From an uncultured Lachnospiraceae bacterium (GTDB lineage: Bacteria > Bacillota > Clostridia > Lachnospirales > Lachnospiraceae), in NCBI GenBank assembly GCA_910577045.1, contig CAJTLB010000009.1:19561-83560 (forward strand): a stretch of DNA of 64,000 nucleotides, in the 5' to 3' direction. The notes beneath the pieces are model-generated. The model saw only the letters and a list, made by a program, of their open reading frames with translations, did no database searches and was not told the DNA's origin. A program made the position numbers and the translations under genes. Shown here piece after piece: positions 18,907 to 41,852 of this stretch (position 1 is its first letter; every line of letters starts with the position of its first letter).

Positions 18907-19671
18907 TTACTTAGAAATTAACACCCCAAGGCTTCCTTCCGCATGCCCAAAGCCAAAAGAACCTTCTATAAATTCAATACAAATTTGTTCCTCCCAATAA
19001 TACCAATTTATCCTATTATTATTTAGTGCATCTAGGATTTCCTGTTCCATCTGTATATTGCTAAAATCAATTTCTGGGTAATTTTCATAAAGCTGGTTTT
19101 CAATAGTTCCTGCTAATTCTTTGTCTATCGTTACTATATCAGATAATTGTATAGCCTCCCCTGTTTCTGCATTTAAATTATATGTATGGGTATAATTATT
19201 TGGATGAGGCCCGCCTTCTTCTACAGTACTTGAAATTACGATACAGACAACTTCCCTATCACACCTAGTAACCGTTGCTTCTGTAACTTGCCCAAACTGA
19301 TAAGTGGCATCTATTGCTTGATAATCCTTAGCAAATGCTTCTGTACTATCCAAAAAATTTGTACTTTGTTCCTTCCATTCTTTATTAATATTCTCAATTG
19401 CTATTGATAACGCCTGATAATTATCCCCACTCACAGAAAAAGCAGGATACTCAGCATAAATAAGTTCCTGTCCTGAACTGTCTTTTCTTGTATCCCGGAT
19501 AATTTTATAAGAGATCTCTGGAACTAAACTATCATTTGTTGTTTGTTTTATTGTATTTTCTACATTTAAAGTTGTCTCATTCTTACCTATACTTTCCCCC
19601 TTACTACAGCCTGTAAAAATTATGCACAAAAAAAATAAGGCACTCCACAATTTTATAATTCTCTTTTTCAT
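18907..19671 (-). CDS. Lipoprotein with DUF4163/DUF3298-like domains
   Basis: 254 aa. Signal peptide with lipobox IIFTG-C. The GGPHPNNYTHTYNLNAETGE segment resembles DUF3298. Confidence 0.7.
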   Translation of the reverse strand: MKKRIIKLWSALFFLCIIFTGCSKGESIGKNETTLNVENTIKQTTNDSLVPEISYKIIRDTRKDSSGQELIYAEYPAFSVSGDNYQALSIAIENINKEWKEQSTNFLDSTEAFAKDYQAIDATYQFGQVTEATVTRCDREVVCIVISSTVEEGGPHPNNYTHTYNLNAETGEAIQLSDIVTIDKELAGTIENQLYENYPEIDFSNIQMEQEILDALNNNRINWYYWEEQICIEFIEGSFGFGHAEGSLGVLISK

Positions 19672-27186: not shown

Positions 27187-28530
27187 CTAAATCTGGCTGC
27201 CCATTCTGCTATCTTCATTTTCTGGTAAAGGTATATTCATAATTAACCGGAAAACAAACACACCATTGTCATTTTTAAAGTCATACTCCCCATCATATTT
27301 TTTTGCAGTTTTTGTAATGCTTAACACGCCAACCCCGCCTGTAAACTCTGGCTTTGGCTGCCCATTTTTAAGTTCTGTCTCTATCCTACAAGTATTACTG
27401 CAGCAAATTACTAACTTATTCTTCTTTTTCTTCAACATAAGGTGAATAAAACATTCCCTCTCTTTTGACTGTTTTTTTACCTCTATGCAGCCATAAATTG
27501 CATTTTCATAGGCATTTGCCAATATTGCAACTAAATCAATACTTGGTATTGGCAAATTTTTTTCTAATTCTACATCTAAAGTTACCTTTATCTGCTCTTT
27601 TCTCGCCCTCCTTGTATAAGCAGACAAAATATTATTAACTGCCATATTGGCACATATAATTTCTGGTATGCCTGTATCCATTTCTTTTTCATATTCTTTC
27701 AAATATTGTAATAATTCTTGGTTCTGCCCCCTATGTATATATTCTGCAATTACTGCATTATGATGCCTAGCATCATGCCGGATTCTCCTGCCAGATTCTA
27801 CTGACTCCTCCATAAGTTCTACATTTCTTTCTAATAGCCGGTGGTTCATCTGCATTAACTGGTTCTCTCTTTGATATTCTTTCTCTTTCCCAATATGCAA
27901 ATAAAGCCGGAATACCAAAAGTTGTAATGCACCAGTTAAAAAGAAATTGATAATAATCTGAAAAAGGCGGTATGGTGTTTGCTCTTTAATATCCGGGTTT
28001 AAAATAAAGCCAATCCCAAATAGTATACTAATTACCATAACTGCTATACTAAAATGATCCAGCTCACTTTCTACATAATACCCAAACGCCCGTATAGAAT
28101 TTTTTATTTTCTTATCAATAAATACTACCATAATCCCAATTAAAATAATACGAGTAACAATATCTGCCCAAACATTTCTATTAAAAAAAATAATAGACAC
28201 TTCAATTCCGCCAATTAAAAATACAGCAAGTAAATAAAATATAAGCGCCAATTTATATATGCTTAAAAAAACATGGTCTTTACTTATTAAAATAGAAAAG
28301 ACACAAAAACCTATATACATTACAAAAGCTACTATCCTAACACAACTTTCTTGGTCTATCATATACCAAATACATGCCCCTGTAATTAAAAGCAAGCCAA
28401 ATCCGATATAATATGTAATCGTTTGTTTTTTATTAAACCGTGATTCTGTCATTAAAAAAAACAATATCACAACTCCTGCGAAACTTATCCCAAATCGAAT
28501 TAATGCAACATATACTGGTCCACCCAACAT
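27187..28530 (-). CDS. Membrane sensor histidine kinase, GHKL/AgrC-like (HPK10-type)
   Basis: 447 aa with about 6-7 N-terminal TM helices, an H-box RRIRHDARHHN and a C-terminal GHKL ATPase (GGVGVLSITK...). No cognate LytTR or other response regulator is adjacent. Confidence 0.75.
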   Translation of the reverse strand: MLGGPVYVALIRFGISFAGVVILFFLMTESRFNKKQTITYYIGFGLLLITGACIWYMIDQESCVRIVAFVMYIGFCVFSILISKDHVFLSIYKLALIFYLLAVFLIGGIEVSIIFFNRNVWADIVTRIILIGIMVVFIDKKIKNSIRAFGYYVESELDHFSIAVMVISILFGIGFILNPDIKEQTPYRLFQIIINFFLTGALQLLVFRLYLHIGKEKEYQRENQLMQMNHRLLERNVELMEESVESGRRIRHDARHHNAVIAEYIHRGQNQELLQYLKEYEKEMDTGIPEIICANMAVNNILSAYTRRARKEQIKVTLDVELEKNLPIPSIDLVAILANAYENAIYGCIEVKKQSKERECFIHLMLKKKKNKLVICCSNTCRIETELKNGQPKPEFTGGVGVLSITKTAKKYDGEYDFKNDNGVFVFRLIMNIPLPENEDSRMGSQI

Positions 28531-28668
28531 ATTTTGTACCTCTTCTTTGTCCTATAGTAATTCTCTACGAATTATACACTCTTTTTATATACTAACTATA
28601 CCAAATATGGCTTTAAAAAATATATCTCTGGTACAATTCGCATTTTTTTGGGTATACTTTGCAGTTTT

Positions 28669-29490
28669 TTATTTTTTCAATATTTTCTTTTTGGTATAGC
28701 CACAAGCCAAACATGTAAGTGCTATAATCAATATTATAAATATTGACAAAATATCCCATATGTCAAAAACAGGTTCTGCTATCATCCTTGATAATATAAA
28801 ATTAATGATAACCTCTAATGGAATTAATAATAAAAATGCTATCCCCATTGAAACCAATTTCCTAGTTTCTCCTAACCGTTGAAAAATAAATAATACTACC
28901 CACAAATATGCCATTGAAACTATTGCCATCACTGTCCCTATTGAAAATACTGCCTTTACTTTTATTAATTTACTCAATATATAAAGATATGGGACAATAA
29001 AAATACTAAAGGATAATAAGCTTTTAGCAATTCTTTTACCCTCTAATAAAATAGCTGGCACAAAAACTAGCCAAGTAAAAATAATAGAACTTACTGGAAT
29101 CAGCGACCATTTTAAAGAACCAGATATTGCTAAATCACAAATAACACATACCATGCTCCCTATAAAAAGTATGGCAGAAAAAATAATAAAAACCACTATA
29201 TTTTTGGTAAGATTACTTTCATTCTTTTTTGTTAGCTCAATCAAATTTTCCTCTGCCTTTTTTTCAAAATCTTCCACATCGACATTTTCTCCACTTAATA
29301 ATTCATTTACTGTAATCCCCAGTATGCTACAAAGTTCCAACATAATAGAAGAATCTGGCATACTTTTTCCTGTCTCCCATTTTGATACTGCCCTGTCTGT
29401 AATATTTAATTGTTCTGCTAACTGTGCCTGGGTTAGTTTTTTCTCTTTACGGCACTTAGCAATAAATTTTCCAATTTCTATTTGATCCAT
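28669..29490 (-). CDS. Xre-family HTH regulator fused to a multi-pass membrane domain
   Basis: The N-terminus MDQIEIGKFIAKCRKEKKLTQAQLAEQLNITDRAVSKWETGKSMPD is an HTH_3 domain. About five predicted TM helices follow. The start is trimmed to the ATG after SD GAAAGGAGA. Confidence 0.75.
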   Translation of the reverse strand: MDQIEIGKFIAKCRKEKKLTQAQLAEQLNITDRAVSKWETGKSMPDSSIMLELCSILGITVNELLSGENVDVEDFEKKAEENLIELTKKNESNLTKNIVVFIIFSAILFIGSMVCVICDLAISGSLKWSLIPVSSIIFTWLVFVPAILLEGKRIAKSLLSFSIFIVPYLYILSKLIKVKAVFSIGTVMAIVSMAYLWVVLFIFQRLGETRKLVSMGIAFLLLIPLEVIINFILSRMIAEPVFDIWDILSIFIILIIALTCLACGYTKKKILKK

Positions 29491-29673
29491 GCTTGTATCT
29501 CCTTTCACCTAGGATTTTACACCTAATTATCCTTTATGGATACAAACTATAGGTAGGATTTTTAACATTCAACCTATGGTTGAGAAGTAAAAAGAGTTAA
29601 TTACCCTATATTCCTGCCCTTGAAAACCTACTAAATATATGTTATTATAGGGTTATAATAACTGTTGAGGTGA

Positions 29674-32944: not shown

Positions 32945-33189
32945 CTTGCCCACTTTATTTATCCTTAAGATTTTCTAGCTAATTAATTGCGTCATACACG
33001 TTAAAAAACGTTTTATAATTTGTATATAAACACTGATTTCATGCATCTGCATAATCTCCTACTGTATTGGGCTCATCAGCCATACTAAAAAGGAAAGCAA
33101 CAACCTTGGAAGCAAATATCTTATTAAAAAAATTGGAAAACCCATTATTTTTACAAAACTATAATTATAATATAATATAAATGTTTTTA

Positions 33190-36100
33190 TCAATTGGTAA
33201 GCATAAATTGTTTAGCTTCATTCTGCATAATCTCTCCTGTCTTTCGGCCATACTTCACTCCTCGTTCTACAGCAGCAAGCAATAACGCACTGCTTCGTGC
33301 ATATCCCATAGTCCGAATAGTTGCCTTTAACAAGCTATCTTTATCCATAGCCCCTTGTTCTTTCAAAGTAATGCAAACAGCATTTTTCAATTCCTGATAA
33401 CAAATTTCATCCATGATTCTCTTTTCTTCAGAATTTATATCGTTCCGATAAATCTTATATATCTCTGGCTCCTGATCTTTACGCCAATAAAACTTAACTC
33501 CCGCCTGTTTATTCACTTTTGCAGATACCTTCTTTAATGCCTTATCTGTTGCTTCCAATGTTTGTGAACTCGATCTAGTAATATTAAAAGCCCTTAATGT
33601 TTTTTTTATCAGGCGGTCATACATAATTGGTGCTTCTACATCTATAATCTGTTGCATCTTATTCGCAATAACCGCTAGATTTTCTTTTTTTACATAGTCT
33701 GTTGTAGATATATTTGTTACTTCAATATCTGCTGGCACATAATTTTCTATATGATAGTCTAAGTAAACGGAATCTATTTGAGTAACAGCTTCTAAAGCCT
33801 CTTTATCCCCTGAAGCCACCTTTTGATCTACAGCTTTAACAATAGTACTATCTATCACAAAGTATTCCTCTGTTCCCATTTTAAATTCTGGTTTATATTC
33901 CAATTCTGGATTATCCAAATGTCTTTCTATATAGATCTGGTATGCTGCCTCCTTCCTTTCGTTTAAAAGCTGCATAAGCTTAAAAATCTCCTTATCTCGG
34001 TTATCCCACCAATCCATTGTCCAGATACGATGCAATTCCCAGCCAAGGCCATTCAGCACACTAATTTGTGCCACTTCCCGATCCTTAGTATTTAATGATT
34101 GATAGTAAGATTCCCCATCTAACATAATACCAAGTAAATATTCCTCCTCATTATAAGGATTAATTACCGCAATATCAACTTTAAACTTAGAATGGCCCAC
34201 CGCTTTCTGGTATTTATATCCACCATCACTAATTGCTTGGCAAATATGTTCCATAATTCCCTGATCTCTCTGGACTCTAGTTTCCACATATTCACCTTGA
34301 AGTTTTCCCTTTTGCGCAAATTCCAAAAAATTCCTCAAAGATTCTACACCCTTGGCTTTCGTTCTCTTCAAATCAATCATATCTGCTATCATAGTAGTAA
34401 ATACTATCATTTCATTTCTTGCACGGGACACTGCTACATTCAGCCTTTTCCAGCCGCCATTTTTATTTAATGGTCCAAAATTCAACAACAGTTTTCCTTC
34501 TTCATCTGGTCCGAAAGCAATAGAAAATAAAATTACATCCCGTTCATCACCTTGTACATTCTCAAGATTCTTTACAAACATAGGTTCTTCACCAGCATTT
34601 GCCCATTTATCAAAAACTATATCTTTCTGATATTCTTCTTGAAGCATATCCTCAATCAATGTTTGTTGGCTAATATTAAATGTAACCACACCAATTGTTT
34701 GATTTGTTAGCTCTGGATCCTGATACCGCCTTTTAATTTCAGCGACAATTGCTTTTGCTTCTCCCTCATTTATACGGCCTCTTCCTCGATCAAAAAAACC
34801 TTCTACCTTCACTAACCTTACCTTCTTTTCACGGTCATTTACTGAGGGGAATGTCAACATAGAATTCTCATAAAATTCCTGGTTACTGAATGCAATAAGG
34901 CTTTCATGCCTGCTTCGGTAATGCCAATGCAGATATGCAGATGGCATTCCAAGTGCCAGACAGTCATCCAAAATACTATCTAAATCTTCAATATCCAAAT
35001 TATCTTCATCTACGGTATTGCCAGCAAAAAAACTAGTTGGCGGCATCTGATTGGGATCACCTACAATAACAGCATTTTTACCTCTTGCCAACACGCCAAC
35101 TGCCTTACAAGTAGGCAGCTGTGAAGCCTCATCAAAAACCACAATATCAAACAAATTATTTTCTGCTTTCAGATACTGTGCCGCTGAAATTGGGCTCATC
35201 AGCATACATGGACATAACCTCATAAGAATATGGGGAATCTGCTCAAACAATGTCCTAATAGACAAACCTCTTCCATTACTAATTGCCCTGCGCAAAATAT
35301 TTAGTTCTTTGCTGACTTCTACAGAATCATATGATGTTGGCAACTGATGTGTCAATTTGTAAAACATCTCATCTTTTGTCAGATTCATAAATTCCTGATC
35401 CAATTTCTTAAACTGTGCAATCTTTTCATTAAATCCAATACCAGTAAATGCGTTGAGTACTGGTTCATTTTCAATTACAGACAAAATAATTGTTTGATAT
35501 ATTGACCTCAAATATACTGTCATTACCTCATCATGGGGAAGTCCTGCTTCATAGGCATCACAGATTTGCTCAAGTCCTTTTTGCCTACATTCTGCTACAA
35601 ATTGCTGGTAAACAATCCAATCCTTGATAGATGATGTATTTTCCAAAATACAAGAACAAAGTGTAAGCCTGTTGTCTATCCAGTCTCCATCTACGTGCTC
35701 AAACGCAAGATCCAATAACCTTGCCACTTCCGCTTCTACCTTCTTTACATCGTCCAGCCCAGTAATTACATCTTTTGCCTTTTGTATACACAATTTAAGG
35801 CTTCCCAAAGTTTCCAGATTATGGATTTGATCAGAAAACTGTGCTATTATTTGTATCTGTCTTTTCACCTTATCCTTATATGTACGCAACGCTTCCATTA
35901 CTGGATAGCATTTAAGGATTTCTTTCCATTCATAGGAAAGCGAAGCTTCTGCCTCTGCTATTTCCTGTGCTTCCTGCTGATAAAAACTAATATCTGTCAA
36001 ATACGCTAAAATACGGTTTGGTTCTACTTGAAATAAAGCAAATGCCTGCAACTCTGATGTTAATGTTGCTAATGCTTTTCCCTTGCCAAAAAATTTCTTA

Positions 36101-39100
36101 TTTGCCAGATCATACTTATCCTTATAAGAATTCATATCCATTCGCAGGAAATTTTCGTTCCAATTTGACAAAAATTCTGTTTTCTTTACATCAAAGGCTT
36201 GTTTTTTAGATAAATAAGTTTCTGGTGCAGCAAATTCCTGTTCTATATTCTTTGAATTAAGCAAAAATACTGGTATTTCTTCTGCTATAATTACACTATA
36301 AGCATAATTACATATATTTTTCCACTCCTCTTCTGTTACTGGCTTTTGTACTCCCATCAATCCTACAAAATCCAATACACTATTCTGGAACTTTTCTAAC
36401 GAATCCATATATGCACGAATAATAGTATCCAAATCAAACTTCACACGTTGACTATATTCTGTCTTATGTACTGCCCTAAGAGGGTGATTATAAGGATGCC
36501 CTATTCCCTTGCCTGCTGCAATTAACCGTTCTAAACTATGTACCTGATGATCCAGATCACTTTCTGTAAGTGATGCCGCATAAGCATGATCAAACCGGAC
36601 ATTTTTATTTAATTCAGGAATCATCTCATAAATATCCATCAATTGACGCAAGCTCTTTCCAAAGGGCCGTTTTACATGCAGAGCTTTTACATAAGCATCC
36701 AGCTCTGCCCTCATCTTTTGAATATCTTGAATTTTCTTATCATAATCTGTTTTCATTCCCCATACGCCAATTTCTAGCCCACGTTTCAACTGATCCAATA
36801 CAGCCTTTTTCGTTGCCTTATTAGAATGTAGTTCCAAGCAAAAATCCTGGATACCAAGCGCAGCCAGCCTTTTTTGCACTACCTCAAGTGCAGCCATTTT
36901 TTCTGCCACAAAAAGGACTGTTTTTCCCTTAGTAAGTGCATTTGCTATCATAGCTGTAATTGTCTGTGATTTTCCTGTTCCTGGCGGCCCATGCAATACA
37001 AAACTTACTCCTGCTGCTGCCATATTAATGGCCCGCAGCTGAGAAGAGTCCACTGTTACTGGTAAGTAGGCTTCATCTGTATTGACGCTTTCTGGAATCA
37101 CACAATCCCAATCCAATGCACCAATCATTAAGCTGTGGACAATTTTACTATTTTCAAGAAAAGTATTGTTATTATGTATATCATTCCACATCATAAATTG
37201 AGAAAAAGAAAAGTTTCCGATAAATCCAGCTTCTACTACATCCCACATAGGAAGGTTCATAATTGCATGGCGAATAATAGCAAAAATCTTTGGGATATTT
37301 AATCCATGTTCGTCTGTTGGTGGAGGATTCAATCCATAAATTTGTATATCATAATTCTGCTTTAAGAATTCCAAAAGGGTAATATTAATCTGTGCATCCT
37401 CATCACGCATACGCATAGCATATCCTTTATTGGCAGATTTCCGCACAATATCAATAGGAACCAATACAATGGGAGCATACCTTATTGTAGTACTTTTCTT
37501 TTCTTCAAACCAGCGCAGCAGCCCTAATGCCAAATATAAAGTACTAGCCCCATTCTCTTCCATAGAGGATTTCGCAGAACGGTACATTTTTGTTAAACAA
37601 TTATTTAATTCTTTTTCTGCATACAGAGAATGAAGCCTCTTATGTTTGCTCTCCAGTGCAATAAAATCTGCAAAAGGCCCTAACTGTCCTAGTGCTTCTA
37701 CTGGAACTCCACCATCTCCGGCAATAGACATATCTGTTGGCCGCGGCATTACCTGGAACTCTTCACCATCAGACAATGCATCTTCCAAAACACTGACATC
37801 AGAAGCCAGCAATGGAACTACCATTTTTGTCATACGCATATTAATTAACATATTCCGAAGGCTAAGATCCAACAACTTACGCTCCCACTGCGTTAATTTT
37901 GTTACTTTATCCTTCTGTGTAGAATTAGGAAGATCAAAAATCTCTACTTTATTTTGTGATACATTGGTAACTTCTTTCTCTTTTCGGTCTTCATGTTGTA
38001 CTTCAAACCCACTTGCTGTTTTTACACGAACTGGAAGAGGCTTTATTCCCATGCTTCTAGCACGTTTCACATCAATTACAAATATAAAATCTCCATAATG
38101 TGATACATTTGCTTTCGCTATAGCAACTGCCTCGTCAAAACTTCTGCTCTTCCCAGCACACATTGCCGTACATTCTACAACAATCATTTCATGAATACCC
38201 TTAGACATACGCTTTTCCAGCTGAGAAGGATCTTCCATAATCATGTCTATAAAAGATTCTTCTACTAGCCAAACACCAGCAAAAATATGGCCCTTCATCA
38301 TCACCATAACAGGATTCAATCCCATCGCTTCTATACATGCTACATACAACAATGTCATATCCATACAAGTACCAAGATGCTGATCCAATATAGCATCTGC
38401 CAAACGGATCCTTTGCCCAAACGCTTCAAAACTCGAAGGCGGTTCTGCATAAGTAATATTTTTCTGCTGAATTGCTGCATAGGCTGCTGTAGCCATATCT
38501 TTAACCCGGTTTGGATCTTTGAATTGATATCCTGCCAGTGACGGATCCCCAGTCCATTTTTCCAAATATTTTGCTGCTAATTGAATCATACTTATTACTA
38601 CTGGATGATTTGGCATAGAAAATGCTGTTAAAAGTTCTGGCGTATACTGTAACCCCGGCCACTGATCGTATGCCAATACTATAATATTTATAGTCTTTTT
38701 TATTAACTGATTTTCTTCAAAACAAATAATAATACTTATTTGGCAAGAACTTCTTTCTGTAAGAGATGCCAGATATTCCGCATTAATAGAAACATCTAAA
38801 TTTTTAAGATGAACTTCCTCGCCTGGCTTAATTTTATCAATGCCTATGTCAAAATTTTCTACAAGCTGATTACTGGAACAGATCCGAACTGTTAGATATT
38901 GAAAATCTTCTTCAGAAATATTTTTTACACATATATCCCGAACAATATGTACACCATTATGAATAATCGCATAAGTAAGTACATCATCAATATCGCAAGT
39001 AAGCTCCAAACCATTCTTTGTTGCATCAATGGTACTCTGTTTTGTTTTTTCTGTGCTATTACGCTCAGCTAATAATTCCTTTTCCTGATTATCTATCTCT

Positions 39101-39456
39101 ATGGCTTGTACTATCTGCATAGAATCAGCTTTCTTTTCTTCTTGAATTTCTTCTACACCTGTTATTTCAGCTTCTTTTGGCATATCTTCTTCAATATTTT
39201 TTATACAATTTTCCCAAGCCAACATGACTGCAGCCATATGCTTACAATTATTACCTACTTTAGCATATGGGCAACTACAATCCATAGACAAAATAGAATC
39301 TCTACTTACTTGTATATCTACATTAAAATCTTCTATCCCAATAACCTTTGCTGTAACCCTATCTTCCTTTATTAAGAGCTCCTGAACCGAATCACTCTGG
39401 ATATAGCCTTGTGCCCCATTTAATACATCTTCTTTAAAAAGTTCCCTCCATTCCAC
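33190..39456 (-). CDS. 2088-aa multidomain protein: SWIM zinc finger, transglutaminase-like Cys-protease fold, DUF4011, Upf1/DNA2-like SF1 helicase (AAA_11/AAA_12), Vsr-like PD-(D/E)xK endonuclease, DUF3320
   Basis: GTG start 7 nt after SD AAGGGGG.
- SWIM CxC...CxH: C60, C62, C71, H73 (nt ~39217-39294).
- TGase-like LGTC364MDMTLLYVACIEAMGL...GH390IFAGVW (nt ~38152-38439).
- DUF4011-like LLDLSLRNMLINM (from aa ~525).
- Walker A GPPGTGK829S (nt ~36970-36993) and Walker B VVFDEASQ (nt ~35131), separated by about 600 aa of mostly helical insert.
- Helicase motifs VGDPNQMPP, HYRSRHESLIAF, VQGDERDVILFS, LNVAVSRAR.
- Nuclease-like GYKYQKAVGHSKFKVDIAV...LGIMLDGESYY...HRIW (nt ~34000-34240).
- DUF3320-like C-terminus (nt ~33230-33670). 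Confidence 0.85.
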   Translation of the reverse strand: MEWRELFKEDVLNGAQGYIQSDSVQELLIKEDRVTAKVIGIEDFNVDIQVSRDSILSMDCSCPYAKVGNNCKHMAAVMLAWENCIKNIEEDMPKEAEITGVEEIQEEKKADSMQIVQAIEIDNQEKELLAERNSTEKTKQSTIDATKNGLELTCDIDDVLTYAIIHNGVHIVRDICVKNISEEDFQYLTVRICSSNQLVENFDIGIDKIKPGEEVHLKNLDVSINAEYLASLTERSSCQISIIICFEENQLIKKTINIIVLAYDQWPGLQYTPELLTAFSMPNHPVVISMIQLAAKYLEKWTGDPSLAGYQFKDPNRVKDMATAAYAAIQQKNITYAEPPSSFEAFGQRIRLADAILDQHLGTCMDMTLLYVACIEAMGLNPVMVMMKGHIFAGVWLVEESFIDMIMEDPSQLEKRMSKGIHEMIVVECTAMCAGKSRSFDEAVAIAKANVSHYGDFIFVIDVKRARSMGIKPLPVRVKTASGFEVQHEDRKEKEVTNVSQNKVEIFDLPNSTQKDKVTKLTQWERKLLDLSLRNMLINMRMTKMVVPLLASDVSVLEDALSDGEEFQVMPRPTDMSIAGDGGVPVEALGQLGPFADFIALESKHKRLHSLYAEKELNNCLTKMYRSAKSSMEENGASTLYLALGLLRWFEEKKSTTIRYAPIVLVPIDIVRKSANKGYAMRMRDEDAQINITLLEFLKQNYDIQIYGLNPPPTDEHGLNIPKIFAIIRHAIMNLPMWDVVEAGFIGNFSFSQFMMWNDIHNNNTFLENSKIVHSLMIGALDWDCVIPESVNTDEAYLPVTVDSSQLRAINMAAAGVSFVLHGPPGTGKSQTITAMIANALTKGKTVLFVAEKMAALEVVQKRLAALGIQDFCLELHSNKATKKAVLDQLKRGLEIGVWGMKTDYDKKIQDIQKMRAELDAYVKALHVKRPFGKSLRQLMDIYEMIPELNKNVRFDHAYAASLTESDLDHQVHSLERLIAAGKGIGHPYNHPLRAVHKTEYSQRVKFDLDTIIRAYMDSLEKFQNSVLDFVGLMGVQKPVTEEEWKNICNYAYSVIIAEEIPVFLLNSKNIEQEFAAPETYLSKKQAFDVKKTEFLSNWNENFLRMDMNSYKDKYDLANKKFFGKGKALATLTSELQAFALFQVEPNRILAYLTDISFYQQEAQEIAEAEASLSYEWKEILKCYPVMEALRTYKDKVKRQIQIIAQFSDQIHNLETLGSLKLCIQKAKDVITGLDDVKKVEAEVARLLDLAFEHVDGDWIDNRLTLCSCILENTSSIKDWIVYQQFVAECRQKGLEQICDAYEAGLPHDEVMTVYLRSIYQTIILSVIENEPVLNAFTGIGFNEKIAQFKKLDQEFMNLTKDEMFYKLTHQLPTSYDSVEVSKELNILRRAISNGRGLSIRTLFEQIPHILMRLCPCMLMSPISAAQYLKAENNLFDIVVFDEASQLPTCKAVGVLARGKNAVIVGDPNQMPPTSFFAGNTVDEDNLDIEDLDSILDDCLALGMPSAYLHWHYRSRHESLIAFSNQEFYENSMLTFPSVNDREKKVRLVKVEGFFDRGRGRINEGEAKAIVAEIKRRYQDPELTNQTIGVVTFNISQQTLIEDMLQEEYQKDIVFDKWANAGEEPMFVKNLENVQGDERDVILFSIAFGPDEEGKLLLNFGPLNKNGGWKRLNVAVSRARNEMIVFTTMIADMIDLKRTKAKGVESLRNFLEFAQKGKLQGEYVETRVQRDQGIMEHICQAISDGGYKYQKAVGHSKFKVDIAVINPYNEEEYLLGIMLDGESYYQSLNTKDREVAQISVLNGLGWELHRIWTMDWWDNRDKEIFKLMQLLNERKEAAYQIYIERHLDNPELEYKPEFKMGTEEYFVIDSTIVKAVDQKVASGDKEALEAVTQIDSVYLDYHIENYVPADIEVTNISTTDYVKKENLAVIANKMQQIIDVEAPIMYDRLIKKTLRAFNITRSSSQTLEATDKALKKVSAKVNKQAGVKFYWRKDQEPEIYKIYRNDINSEEKRIMDEICYQELKNAVCITLKEQGAMDKDSLLKATIRTMGYARSSALLLAAVERGVKYGRKTGEIMQNEAKQFMLTN

Positions 39457-39623
39457 TTTAGAGCCCCCTTACTGTATTTATAATTTTACCAGCATATAAT
39501 ACTGCCTATTGTTTCTTATCTTTCTTCTTATCATCTAAATATCCATCTATTACATTCCTGCAATAAGCTAAGCTTAATAGATATTGGCTCATTAATTGTC
39601 TTTCTGCCTACTAATACGTTTTC

Positions 39624-39839
39624 TTAAACTTGACTTAACAATTTATACAATTTTTGTACTTCTTCCTTTGTCAAAGTAATTCCTTTACCCATCTTTTCAT
39701 GCCCTGGTGCCCAGTCACGAATATCATACTTCGGCTCCCCGCCATTCCAAGATACCAAATTCAATTCCTTCCTCCAGCCTTTTAGGCTCTCGGAAATAAC
39801 GCCAAGTTCTTCTTTAATTTCATATTTAATGTCTGCCAT
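39624..39839 (-). CDS. YdbC-like / PC4-fold ssDNA-binding protein (71 aa)
   Basis: MADIKYEIKEELGVISESLKGWRKELNLVSWNGGEPKYDIRDWAPGHEKMGKGITLTKEE closely resembles my memory of Lactococcus YdbC (KGWRKELNRVSWN..EPKYDIR.W.P.HEKMGKGITL), which has a PC4-like fold. Confidence 0.85.
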   Translation of the reverse strand: MADIKYEIKEELGVISESLKGWRKELNLVSWNGGEPKYDIRDWAPGHEKMGKGITLTKEEVQKLYKLLSQV

Positions 39840-40519
39840 AATTACCTCTCCTTGTATGATTTAGGTATTTTAATTATCAACTCTTTTTTTATTATATACT
39901 AAAATAATATAATACTATAACAAATATCCATATCTTTTTATTTCTATATTTTTATAAAGCAAGTATATCACAAGCTATTACTTTTGGCTACCTTAACCCA
40001 CTCTATGAAAATGGCTCTAGTAAGTAGCTGTAAAATACTTTCGCTTGTACGAAATTCGTCTGGCGTTTTTCGGCTGCCAGATAGCCAGATAATCCATAAC
40101 AGATACTTTTTCGAATTTCAGAAAAGCATAGAAGGAACTTGCTATCATCTGATTTTAAATGTTCGCACTTGGCAGCAGGAGACATTACAAGCCCCATACA
40201 GGCATTTTTATACTGCTGCCTTATCATTTTCAATACAATGATTTAACTTTCTGTATGGGTCAAATTCGGGCAACTGTATCCATATTTTTGAGCTGCTTTT
40301 TATAATTTCCCGTAGTTCGCCCGTGGTTCGTTTCTTTTTTCTCTTGCTTCACTCTCGCTTCACTTCTTAAATTTAGCTTTTACATTGATATTAGAAGATG
40401 GTTTTAAGAAAACAGAAAGCAAATATCTTAATAGCGAAAAAACTCTAGTTTTCCCTAGTTTTTTACAGAAGGCAGCAACCGATCCACTCAACCATAATAT
40501 ATAAACGTATGTTCTATAC

Positions 40520-40657
40520 TTGAATCTTGCTGCTAGATATGTTATAGTAAAGACAGAAAAAGGGAAAGCCATAGAAGCGGCTACCCCCAAATAATTACAA
40601 TGTAACCGCTAAAAGCAACAAGCCGTCACTATTGGTAGTAGTGGCGGCTATTTTCTT
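40520..40657 (+). ncRNA. Candidate antisense sRNA (type I antitoxin), with its promoter, convergent with the holin-like toxin ORF
   Basis: Promoter TTGAAT (40520-40525) - 17 nt with TGn - TATAGT (40543-40548). Terminator stem AGCCGTCACTA / TAGTGGCGGCT (40621-40649) followed by ATTTTCTT. The predicted transcript of about 100 nt is fully complementary to the 3' UTR and stop region of the toxin mRNA. Confidence 0.35.
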
Positions 40658-40740
40658 CCCTTAAAAATCTCATAACAAAGACCTACAAGGGCAACAATGA
40701 ATATTCCTATCTGGATTAGTTCCTGATATGTAACATACAT
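40648..40740 (-). CDS. Putative holin-like toxin family peptide (type I toxin), 30 aa
   Basis: MYVTYQELIQIGIFIVALVGLCYEIFKGRK is a single TM helix with a basic tail. It has its own SD (AAAGGAGGG, 8 nt before the ATG). It resembles Hol-Tox peptides of Firmicute mobile elements. Confidence 0.6.
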   Translation of the reverse strand: MYVTYQELIQIGIFIVALVGLCYEIFKGRK

Positions 40741-40986
40741 AGATTTCGCCCTCCTTTCTTTCGTCTGAAGGGCATTGATAACACCCTCCGAAAAAAAGAG
40801 GGGTAACCGCCTATTTTTGTCTAGATCATTCTCTTTGATACCTTCCCCTTCTTTTGGTCTATGTCCATTTCTATATTCGTATAAAGGGCAATTTTTCACA
40901 GGACACAATCGAACTTCCTTCCATTGTCCATTACTACATTCTAAGCATTCCGCCCTAATTGCTTTTATTGGCGTTAATTTTGCCAT
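40648..40986 (-). CDS. 112-aa ORF whose N-terminal ~45 aa form a small Cys-rich Zn-ribbon protein typical of ICE/phage DNA; it reads through in frame into the toxin peptide
   Basis: MAKLTPIKAIRAECLECSNGQWKEVRLCPVKNCPLYEYRNGHRP (CxxC...CxxxxC). No stop separates it from the toxin frame. The middle segment has no recognisable features, so the true C-terminus is unclear. Confidence 0.5.
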   Translation of the reverse strand: MAKLTPIKAIRAECLECSNGQWKEVRLCPVKNCPLYEYRNGHRPKEGEGIKENDLDKNRRLPLFFSEGVINALQTKERRAKSMYVTYQELIQIGIFIVALVGLCYEIFKGRK

Positions 40987-41294
40987 ACCTCTGCTTCATG
41001 GTTCCAAGACAATATAACACTTGAATTTTCTTCTTTTAAGACTTTTAAATTTATTTATAAACTAATAAAATTATTTTCTTATATTATATTTTCAGATATA
41101 ATATCAATATAATGCACACTCTATCATATATTAATTACTCTTCTATTCTCTAAAGATTTTTCTTACTTTTTTGTAAATGTGCTATAATAGAAATATCAAC
41201 ATAAAAATTGAGTTCTTATAAAATAATGAAACATTATAAATTTTAAATATAAGATATATAACCACATACAATAATGAAGAAAGGAAGTGAATCC

Positions 41295-41852
41295 ATGTTA
41301 GCATTACAGCCAGAAACTATTAACCTAACACAGTATGAAGCTCTTCCAGAAGATATAAGGATAGAAGTCTTTGATGGAGTAATTTATAATATGGCCAGCC
41401 CATCACAAATTCACCAATCAATACTTTTAGAGCTTAGTACATTGCTCAATACTTATATCAAAAGAAAAAGAGGAGATTGTAAGGTTTTTCTCGCTCCATT
41501 TGATGTATTACTTTCTGACAATCCCCTTACAATCGTGCAACCTGATATTATGATTGTCTGTGATAAAAACAAGTTAGATGAAAAACGTTGCAATGGTGCC
41601 CCTGACTTTATTATTGAAATTGTTTCTCCCAGCAATCCATCAGATGACTATATCCGCAAACTCTACTACTACAAAAATACTGGCATTCGTGAATATTGGA
41701 TTATAGATCTACGCCGCAAAACAGTAACTATCAACTATTTTGAGAAAAATTTGCTGAACATCCAATATTCCTTTGAATCCACAATCAAAGTTAATATTTA
41801 TGACGATTTATATATTAATTTTTCTGATATTGCTAATTTATTGAATATTTAA
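41295..41852 (+). CDS. Uma2-family (DUF820) PD-(D/E)xK endonuclease
   Basis: YEALPEDIRIEVFDGVIYNMASPSQIHQ...QPDIMIVC...GAPDFIIEIVSPSN...KLYYYKNTGIREYWIID is the canonical Uma2 pattern. The start is trimmed to the ATG after SD GAAAGGAAG. Confidence 0.85.
   Translation: MLALQPETINLTQYEALPEDIRIEVFDGVIYNMASPSQIHQSILLELSTLLNTYIKRKRGDCKVFLAPFDVLLSDNPLTIVQPDIMIVCDKNKLDEKRCNGAPDFIIEIVSPSNPSDDYIRKLYYYKNTGIREYWIIDLRRKTVTINYFEKNLLNIQYSFESTIKVNIYDDLYINFSDIANLLNI

Follow-up and report, generated by a model that had tools for sequence, protein, structure and literature searches.

A probable ProA-family anti-phage helicase-nuclease with a SWIM zinc-finger extension in the chromosome of an uncultured Lachnospiraceae bacterium

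Helicases of the Upf1/DNA2/SEN1 type, which belong to superfamily 1B (SF1B), translocate 5'-3' on single strands, and PD-(D/E)xK domains of the Vsr type cut DNA. An Upf1-like helicase and a Vsr-like nuclease are joined in one gene, together with the domains DUF4011 and DUF3320, in the Hhe system (NF042953, PDLC02194). Phage functions in DNA metabolism are the probable triggers of Hhe, whose mechanism is unsolved (bioRxiv 10.1101/2024.10.10.617714). The same core is found in the family that NCBI has curated under the name 'anti-phage protein ProA'. In this work, we analysed a stretch of 64,000 nucleotides (the window) from an uncultured Lachnospiraceae bacterium, namely positions 19,561 to 83,560 of the forward strand of contig CAJTLB010000009.1 (assembly GCA_910577045.1), in which one open reading frame (ORF) encodes a protein of 2088 amino acids with this core. 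Most probably the ORF is an intact chromosomal member of the ProA family, that is, a single-polypeptide anti-phage helicase-nuclease which corresponds to the PADLOC candidate PDC-S37, belongs to a sister family of Hhe and carries a SWIM zinc finger as an add-on.

The assignment to ProA comes from profile comparisons. With the NCBIfam equivalog NF058533.1 the protein scored 1925.6 bits (E = 0, cut-off 1500), and positions 1-1903 of the 1903 in the model aligned with residues 161-2054 in a single stretch, with all domains in order. The best model of PADLOC-DB v2 was the candidate single-gene system PDC-S37 (1120.3 bits; positions 8-1542 of 1550, residues 519-2080). Canonical ProA is a protein of about 1950 residues made of a beta-sandwich and a transglutaminase-like domain, DUF4011, a split SF1 helicase, an MTES_1575/Vsr-like nuclease and DUF3320. 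The window protein resembles it from end to end, and differs by about 160 extra residues (SWIM and linker) placed before model position 1; it also scores lower, with 1926 bits as opposed to approximately 2300 bits for canonical members, such as those of about 1956 residues from Pontibacter and Paenibacillus, which align with the ProA model over residues 15-1923. The ProA and PDC-S37 matches support an earlier interpretation made from the letters alone (hereafter the sequence-only reading), insofar as it had proposed a defence-type protein that joins helicase and nuclease in one chain and is related to Hhe.

The sequence-only reading went further and proposed that the protein is an Hhe (the system of Gao et al. 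2020) extended at its N-terminus. The two do share the core of DUF4011, SF1 helicase, Vsr-like nuclease and DUF3320, and the Hhe models match strongly, with 715.3 bits for NF042953.1 of NCBIfam and 505 bits for PDLC02194 of PADLOC. However, the former score is far below the equivalog cut-off of 2000 bits and comes from two stretches (the best covering residues 1125-1840), and the PADLOC match is fragmentary too, the Hhe matches being limited to two to three stretches (best, residues 1125-1846 in both libraries), whereas another equivalog, ProA, is passed from end to end. Moreover, when residues 161-700 were used as a tblastn query, plasmid genes annotated as hhe aligned to the DUF4011 segment alone. 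Thus, the beta-sandwich/transglutaminase-like module, which is present in this protein and unmatched in those genes at tblastn sensitivity, sets ProA apart from Hhe. Membership in Hhe was rejected on these grounds, and an Hhe with an extended N-terminus is a highly improbable identity for this gene. The PADLOC comparison gave PDC-S37 and not Hhe as the best match. Mokosh was rejected as well: its helicases are homologous to the SF1B helicase C-terminal half of this protein (MkoC, E 5e-25; MkoA, E 1e-23), but the match is confined to the RecA2 part, and the window protein has neither the RNA-helicase architecture nor the PLD nuclease of that system, no PLD domain being found in the Pfam scan. 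As the main object of this analysis, the protein opens no new class, and the Prokaryotic Genome Annotation Pipeline (PGAP) would already call the gene ProA.

A Pfam search found SWIM, DUF4011, AAA_11, AAA_12, MTES_1575 and DUF3320 in the protein (Table 1), in agreement with the DUF4011 segment, the Vsr/DUF559-like nuclease and the DUF3320-like tail that had been recognised by eye. The claimed SWIM finger stood as well: C60, C62, C71 and H73 form the signature CxC-x8-CxH, and residues 54-81 scored 22.7 bits with PF04434, above the gathering score of 19.6. The helicase, whose PDB matches include DNA2, Upf1 and SEN1, is split, with AAA_11 falling into two stretches (the first at residues 802-870) and AAA_12 covering residues 1495-1686. 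Here the sequence-only reading had the Walker A lysine right (K829), was one residue off for Walker B, which is D1442/E1443, and gave about 600 residues for an insertion of about 550. The catalytic motifs of all three enzymatic modules are intact, and K829, D1442/E1443, D1761/D1780/E1794 and C364/H390/D409 are all invariant in 20 full-length homologues.

Table 1. Features of the ProA locus and SAP-domain genes beside related ProA genes. Positions refer to the window unless a locus is named.
Feature	Position	Strand	Evidence or remark
ProA-family helicase-nuclease ORF	33190..39456	-	2088 aa, GTG start, stop included; NF058533 and PDC-S37 matches
DUF3320 C-terminal domain, aa 1922-1963	33568..33693	-	Pfam E 5.5e-8
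MTES_1575 / Vsr-DUF559-like PD-(D/E)xK nuclease, aa 1736-1830	33967..34251	-	PF18741 E 1e-22; D1761, D1780, E1794 invariant
Helicase motif II (D1442/E1443) to AAA_12 (RecA2 domain)	34399..35187	-	Pfam, PDB matches, invariant columns
Helical insertion of ~550 aa between helicase motif I/Ia and motif II	35197..36846	-	AAA_11 split; covered by ProA and PDC-S37 models
SF1 helicase motif I region (AAA_11 N-terminal part, GPPGTGKS, K829)	36847..37053	-	Pfam; SMUBP-2 and SEN1 matches in PDB
DUF4011, aa 527-698	37363..37878	-	Pfam E 7e-46
Predicted transglutaminase-like (papain-like) domain, aa 262-495, C364/H390/D409	37972..38673	-	Domain model pLDDT 90; Foldseek; residue conservation
Beta-sandwich (Ig/CARDB-like), aa 150-260, with which canonical ProA begins	38677..39009	-	AlphaFold strands 150-260, pLDDT >90; Foldseek
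Low-complexity acidic linker and long helix, aa 92-149	39010..39183	-	pLDDT <50 at residues 97-124; homologues differ here in length and sequence
N-terminal SWIM zinc-finger module, aa 1-91 (C60, C62, C71, H73)	39184..39456	-	Pfam SWIM; pLDDT 92-98
PC4-ProA spacer, 167 nt	39457..39623	-	AAGGGGG ribosome-binding site; no terminator-like hairpin
PC4/YdbC-family single-stranded DNA-binding protein gene, 71 aa	39624..39839	-	PF02229; PDB 3pm7, 2ltd, 2l3a; neighbour, partner status not demonstrated
Variable 1.1-kb segment: Zn-ribbon/Hol-Tox-like ORF and two small ORFs	40010..41123	n/a	Missing in sister contig L091
Uma2-family putative endonuclease, edge of accessory stretch	41274..41852	+	PF05685 E 8e-30
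SAP-domain gene upstream of SWIM-type ProA	L085 2912-3979		
SAP-domain gene upstream of SWIM-type ProA	L089 2913-3980		
SAP-domain gene upstream of SWIM-type ProA	L171 1915-2985		
SAP-domain gene upstream of SWIM-type ProA	L173 1582-2979		
SAP-domain gene upstream of SWIM-type ProA	L174 1601-2983		
SAP-domain gene upstream of SWIM-type ProA	L057 8786-9985		
SAP-domain gene upstream of SWIM-type ProA	L087 1291-1941		
SAP-domain gene downstream of DUF4145-type ProA	L021 16050-17096		

The N-terminal part of about 500 residues had been thought to be new, which holds for the SWIM extension of about 160 residues and not for residues 161-520, since these are canonical ProA and match its model from position 1. 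This region was found with 62-84% identity in 133 of 134 proteins (top matches and cluster members), the exception being a truncated member, and with 36-79% identity across 58 species-level loci, including Oscillospiraceae, Bacteroidota, Paenibacillus and Synergistes. In a library-wide search, the module was present in 3,457 representative clusters across phyla (958 of them at E<=1e-30), and it usually started at about residue 15-20 of proteins of approximately 1900-2000 residues. As residues 161-520 are common to every homologue examined and widespread in a known family, that part of the novelty claim fails.

The AlphaFold model of residues 1-520 (predicted local distance difference test score, pLDDT, 86) resolved the N-terminus into four parts: SWIM (1-91), a disordered linker with a helix (92-149), a beta-sandwich (150-260) and an alpha/beta part (273-490). 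With the whole 520-residue model, Foldseek gave mostly generic beta-sandwich matches, with CARDB domains and transglutaminase/factor XIII chains. A separate model of residues 262-500 (pLDDT 90) was made for Foldseek, and its top ranks were mostly of the transglutaminase fold, though weak (E 3.6e-3 and worse; template-modelling score, TM, 0.27-0.37); among these were yeast and mouse PNGase, BDI_1141, PeiP, the Cytophaga cysteine protease 3isr, CPR-C4, Rad4/XPC and TglA. In the model, C364 opens a helix at its N-terminal end, the strand that comes next begins with H390, and D409 is located after the hairpin. Proteins of the PNGase, Rad4/XPC, PeiP and BDI_1141 type are alike in predicted fold and in this order of Cys (helix), His (strand) and Asp, and the animal transglutaminases (TG2/FXIII) are alike in having a beta-sandwich followed by the core. 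Moreover, in 49 sequences with identities down to 29%, C364 and H390 were invariant and D409 was kept in at least 90%. This conservation supports the fold assignment, and residues 262-495 probably adopt a transglutaminase-like fold with an intact Cys-His-Asp triad. The Cys/His core pointed out in the sequence-only reading is thus backed by invariant residues and predicted fold, but not by Pfam, as Transglut_core gave no match at E<=0.1; likewise, a hidden Markov model (HMM) search of PDB sequences with the domain found no transglutaminase, so that the likeness to transglutaminase-fold proteins does not extend to sequence profiles. In view of the absent Transglut_core match and the weak Foldseek scores, the module is best called a putative enzyme.

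The first 160 residues or so, comprising SWIM and linker, are the sole part of the protein outside the ProA model and mark a Lachnospiraceae subfamily. The CxC..CxH pattern is kept in five other SWIM-type N-termini (L006, L007, L010, L044 and L057), and the SWIM segment is much less conserved (31-66%) than the remainder of the protein. Residues 13-138 also match the N-terminus of another PADLOC candidate, PDC-S62 (E 7e-11). Across the ProA family, the N-terminal extension is of several types: none, as in the majority, SWIM, DUF4145, or SWIM plus DUF4145, as in L044. The SWIM type belongs to Lachnospiraceae, for instance Blautia hominis, Enterocloster citroniae and Hungatella hathewayi, and the DUF4145 type is seen mostly in metagenome-assembled genomes (MAGs) of the Oscillospirales type, such as Faecousia and Acutalibacteraceae. 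Defence proteins commonly combine a constant effector with sensor or targeting modules that can be exchanged, and the ProA N-termini follow this pattern. The DUF4145 module occupies the N-terminal ~180-340 residues in seven homologues (L021, L030, L032, L037, L041, L048 and L044), and the one copy tested, that of L044, resembles the N-terminus of a type I restriction endonuclease (PRK11448, positions 4-198).

With regard to its setting, ProA and the small PC4-like gene upstream of it are flanked on one side by cysK, nifS and nifU (nifS and nifU via TIGR03419) and on the opposite side by the Uma2 gene (PF05685), rlmD (TIGR00479) and a gene for a yhaM-like HD protein; these profile matches confirm the position between nifU and rlmD with Uma2 nearby that had been proposed. 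Several Lachnospiraceae MAGs encode a protein identical to this ProA, again in the nifU-rlmD interval. When the interval was compared between related genomes, a sister metagenome contig with flanks of 93-95% nucleotide identity (L091) was found to keep the PC4 gene and the Uma2 flank without an intact ProA. This contig aligns to window positions 33176-33441, 39619-40010 and 41123-41568; ProA is reduced in it to the last ~270 nt, with 76% identity, and the 1.1-kb segment 40010-41123 is also missing, which indicates at least two indels at this spot. An orthologue with 77% identity (L085) is also beside rlmD and the HD gene, with a different gene upstream and DUF1016/YhcG downstream. Identity drops to 37-45% in relatives from Oscillospiraceae, Bacteroidota, Paenibacillus and Synergistes, and 76 plasmid records contain at least 80% of the N-terminal region. 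Several relatives lie among defence-type genes: HsdR, GIY-YIG and Mrr in L044, HsdR, GmrSD and Macro in L173, DarT-Macro in L174, and an integrase and Schlafen in L171. Because of the loss in L091, the neighbours in L085, the defence contexts of the relatives and the plasmid carriage, ProA is best seen here as a defence-type accessory gene that occupies a variable site in the chromosome and belongs to a family that spreads horizontally. The presence/absence between strains and the varied neighbours in L085 agree with the accessory position that had been suggested beforehand.

It must be taken into account that a helicase-nuclease of this kind could instead be a housekeeping protein for genome maintenance, active in repair or in the processing of R-loops or replication forks and with no part in immunity. 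This would be consistent with a set of genes placed between housekeeping genes without mobility genes or compositional anomaly, with the identical protein in the same context in several MAGs, and with the resemblance of the helicase to DNA2, Upf1 and SEN1. In addition, a large DUF4011 gene is core in Pseudomonas aeruginosa, where it flanks the defence hotspot cDHS1 (PMC10250203); thus, not all DUF4011 helicase-nucleases are accessory. However, the presence/absence polymorphism in the sister strain, the patchy distribution across phyla with plasmid carriage, and the location of relatives inside restriction-modification (R-M), DarTG, GmrSD and Schlafen islands all speak against a housekeeping role, as do the swapped N-terminal modules (none, SWIM, DUF4145, SWIM plus DUF4145), which are typical of defence proteins. 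A role restricted to genome maintenance is therefore improbable. The core gene of P. aeruginosa also weighs against an accessory anti-phage ProA, and so do the lack of an integrase, a tRNA or flanking direct repeats at the locus, a GC content equal to that of the flanks and, for the N-terminal enzyme, the missing Transglut_core match and weak Foldseek scores described above. Moreover, we infer the anti-phage role of this protein, and of the ProA family, from NCBI's curated name and the genomic context, and the paper behind the name was not found in the library searched. Taken together, we still regard an accessory ProA-family defence protein as the probable identity of this gene.

The sequence-only reading had placed a PC4-like ORF of 71 residues 167 nt upstream of the 2088-residue ORF on the same strand, and both were found where it had put them. 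The small protein matches PF02229 with 50 bits (threshold 25), and relatives are labelled 'PC4/YdbC family ssDNA-binding protein' by NCBI, ssDNA standing for single-stranded DNA. It aligns over its full length with solved structures of the YdbC type (3pm7, E 5e-27; 2ltd, E 1e-25), among them YdbC of Lactococcus lactis (2ltd/2ltt) and SP_0782 of Streptococcus pneumoniae (E 4e-19). One possibility is that the two genes are a dedicated pair, in which PC4 would sense the ssDNA of a phage and hand it over to ProA, or activate ProA, through the SWIM module. The common strand and the 167-nt gap with no terminator-like hairpin between the genes would suit such a two-gene system. The same can be said of a second, independent pairing in a different context: in L044, inside an R-M/Mrr island, a PC4 gene with 75% identity is followed after 15 nt by a ProA of the SWIM plus DUF4145 type, which is only about 42% identical to the window protein in the N-terminal module.

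However, when the co-occurrence was examined (tblastn and phmmer), this was the only PC4 gene within 10 kb of ProA in 58 loci from other species, and tblastn of ProA against 80 loci that contain close relatives of PC4 gave no intact copy. As mentioned above, L091 keeps PC4 after the loss of ProA, and members of the same PC4 clade follow R-M genes and precede a wide range of unrelated effectors, so that adjacency to any one defence gene is expected by chance within islands. PC4 was thus rejected as a conserved partner of ProA, and the pair proposed from the sequence shows no general co-occurrence. From these distributions, the PC4 neighbour is best regarded as a general resident of defence islands and not as a dedicated partner. 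A dedicated two-gene system is accordingly doubtful, and a functional link between PC4 and ProA through the SWIM module has a similarly low, though real, likelihood.

A small DNA-binding gene does tend to occupy this upstream position in SWIM-type loci, and it is usually a different one. Among 13 such loci, seven have a gene for a SAP-domain protein upstream of ProA, two have PC4 and four have neither. The SAP genes encode proteins of 216-465 residues, 31-79% identical to the copy in L085. The gap between the SAP gene and ProA is 15-21 nt in six loci and about 190 nt in L087. In 53 loci without SWIM a single SAP gene was found, located downstream of ProA (L021). An upstream SAP or PC4 gene is present in 9 of 13 SWIM-type loci and in 1 of 53 others (Fisher p = 2e-7, with phylogeny not corrected for). 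The SAP-domain protein is not recognised by NCBIfam or PADLOC, and no SAP homologue was found in the window.

PC4/YdbC genes were surveyed in 80 metagenome loci with PC4 genes 65-94% identical to that of the window, in which the immediate upstream gene could be called in 53 and the downstream gene in 53 (the sets differ); the loci that bear on the pattern are L091-L170, L175 and L176. Upstream genes included Eco57I-type IIG R-M (7), HsdR (5), type III Res (4), HsdS (2), Csn2 (2) and AIPR (1), and those of R-M type often end 0-30 nt before PC4. The downstream genes usually share the strand of PC4, and those of defence type named here are 16-125 nt away from it. Among the downstream genes are a SIR2-APAZ/pAgo fusion, bSEFIR, GajA (Gabija), JetA, GmrSD, Schlafen/AlbA_2, HEPN_Apea, SseB-Macro, DUF1016/YhcG, MkoA-like and PDC-S28 helicases, and RelA_SpoT. 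Annotated plasmids agree with this pattern: a Niallia plasmid has the order hsdM-hsdS-hsdR-PC4/YdbC followed by a restriction endonuclease, and in an Enterococcus faecium plasmid a PC4/YdbC gene is near a DUF262 gene. The 2013 paper on the YdbC structure assigned no cellular role and merely remarked on differing contexts (PMC3575825). Whereas the published contexts of YdbC and SP_0782 differ, the close relatives surveyed here are concentrated in defence islands, and no paper linking YdbC/PC4-like proteins to defence was found in the library searched. As a separate observation, genes for DUF1016/YhcG PD-(D/E)xK nucleases adjoin both ProA (L085, 10600-11535) and PC4 (L101, 4450-5463).

Other features of the locus concern the segment beyond PC4 and the flanks. 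The sequence-only reading had noted a holin-like toxin next to the pair. This was weakened, as there is merely a sub-threshold match to Hol_Tox and PepG1 type I toxins in the hydrophobic C-terminal peptide of a 112-residue ORF (40648-40986, minus strand), but the N-terminus of that ORF is indeed a Cys-rich Zn-ribbon (CLEC...CPVKNC). The ORF may be two small genes that share one frame, and a strong hairpin is found at 40621-40649. Just past cysK, at 27187-29508 on the minus strand, a 279-residue protein of the HTH_3/XRE type adjoins a 447-residue HATPase_c_5 protein. A promoter scan of the locus was uninformative, with 33 sites seen and 33 expected.

As a ProA-family protein, the helicase would load on foreign or phage DNA, or on replication intermediates, and translocate with ATP, and the fused nuclease would cut. 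The nuclease could be licensed by the Cys-His-Asp module, acting as a regulatory or sensing enzyme (a peptidase, isopeptidase or deamidase); in such a scheme the transglutaminase-like domain would have a gating or sensing function via proteolysis, deamidation or substrate capture. The SWIM module may contribute to the recognition of DNA, a target or a partner, and in most SWIM-type relatives this partner could be the SAP-domain DNA-binding protein encoded 15-21 nt upstream. In the window, the SAP gene is missing and the PC4/YdbC ssDNA binder is in the upstream position. Tentatively, both observations could be joined, and SWIM-type ProA would be a two-component system: the small nucleic-acid binder encoded upstream, usually the SAP-domain protein, and PC4/YdbC here and in L044, would dock on SWIM as an infection sensor or adaptor, and PC4/YdbC would be an overlooked accessory that many defence systems in Firmicutes share, serving as a sensor or regulator; its genes lie within operon distance of R-M genes (types I, IIG and III), a SIR2-pAgo fusion, bSEFIR, GajA, GmrSD, Schlafen-type and ApeA-like genes. 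This combined picture is less probable than the assignment to ProA itself by a wide measure.

A large defence family that crosses phyla carries an invariant Cys-His-Asp, transglutaminase-like module with no counterpart in Hhe, and no published role for this module was found. The SWIM form of ProA tracks with the upstream SAP gene, which makes it a tractable case of sensor modules added to a fixed effector. As for proteins of the YdbC/SP_0782 type, whose structures have been solved, their concentration in the defence islands of gut Firmicutes supplies a biological context that can be tested.

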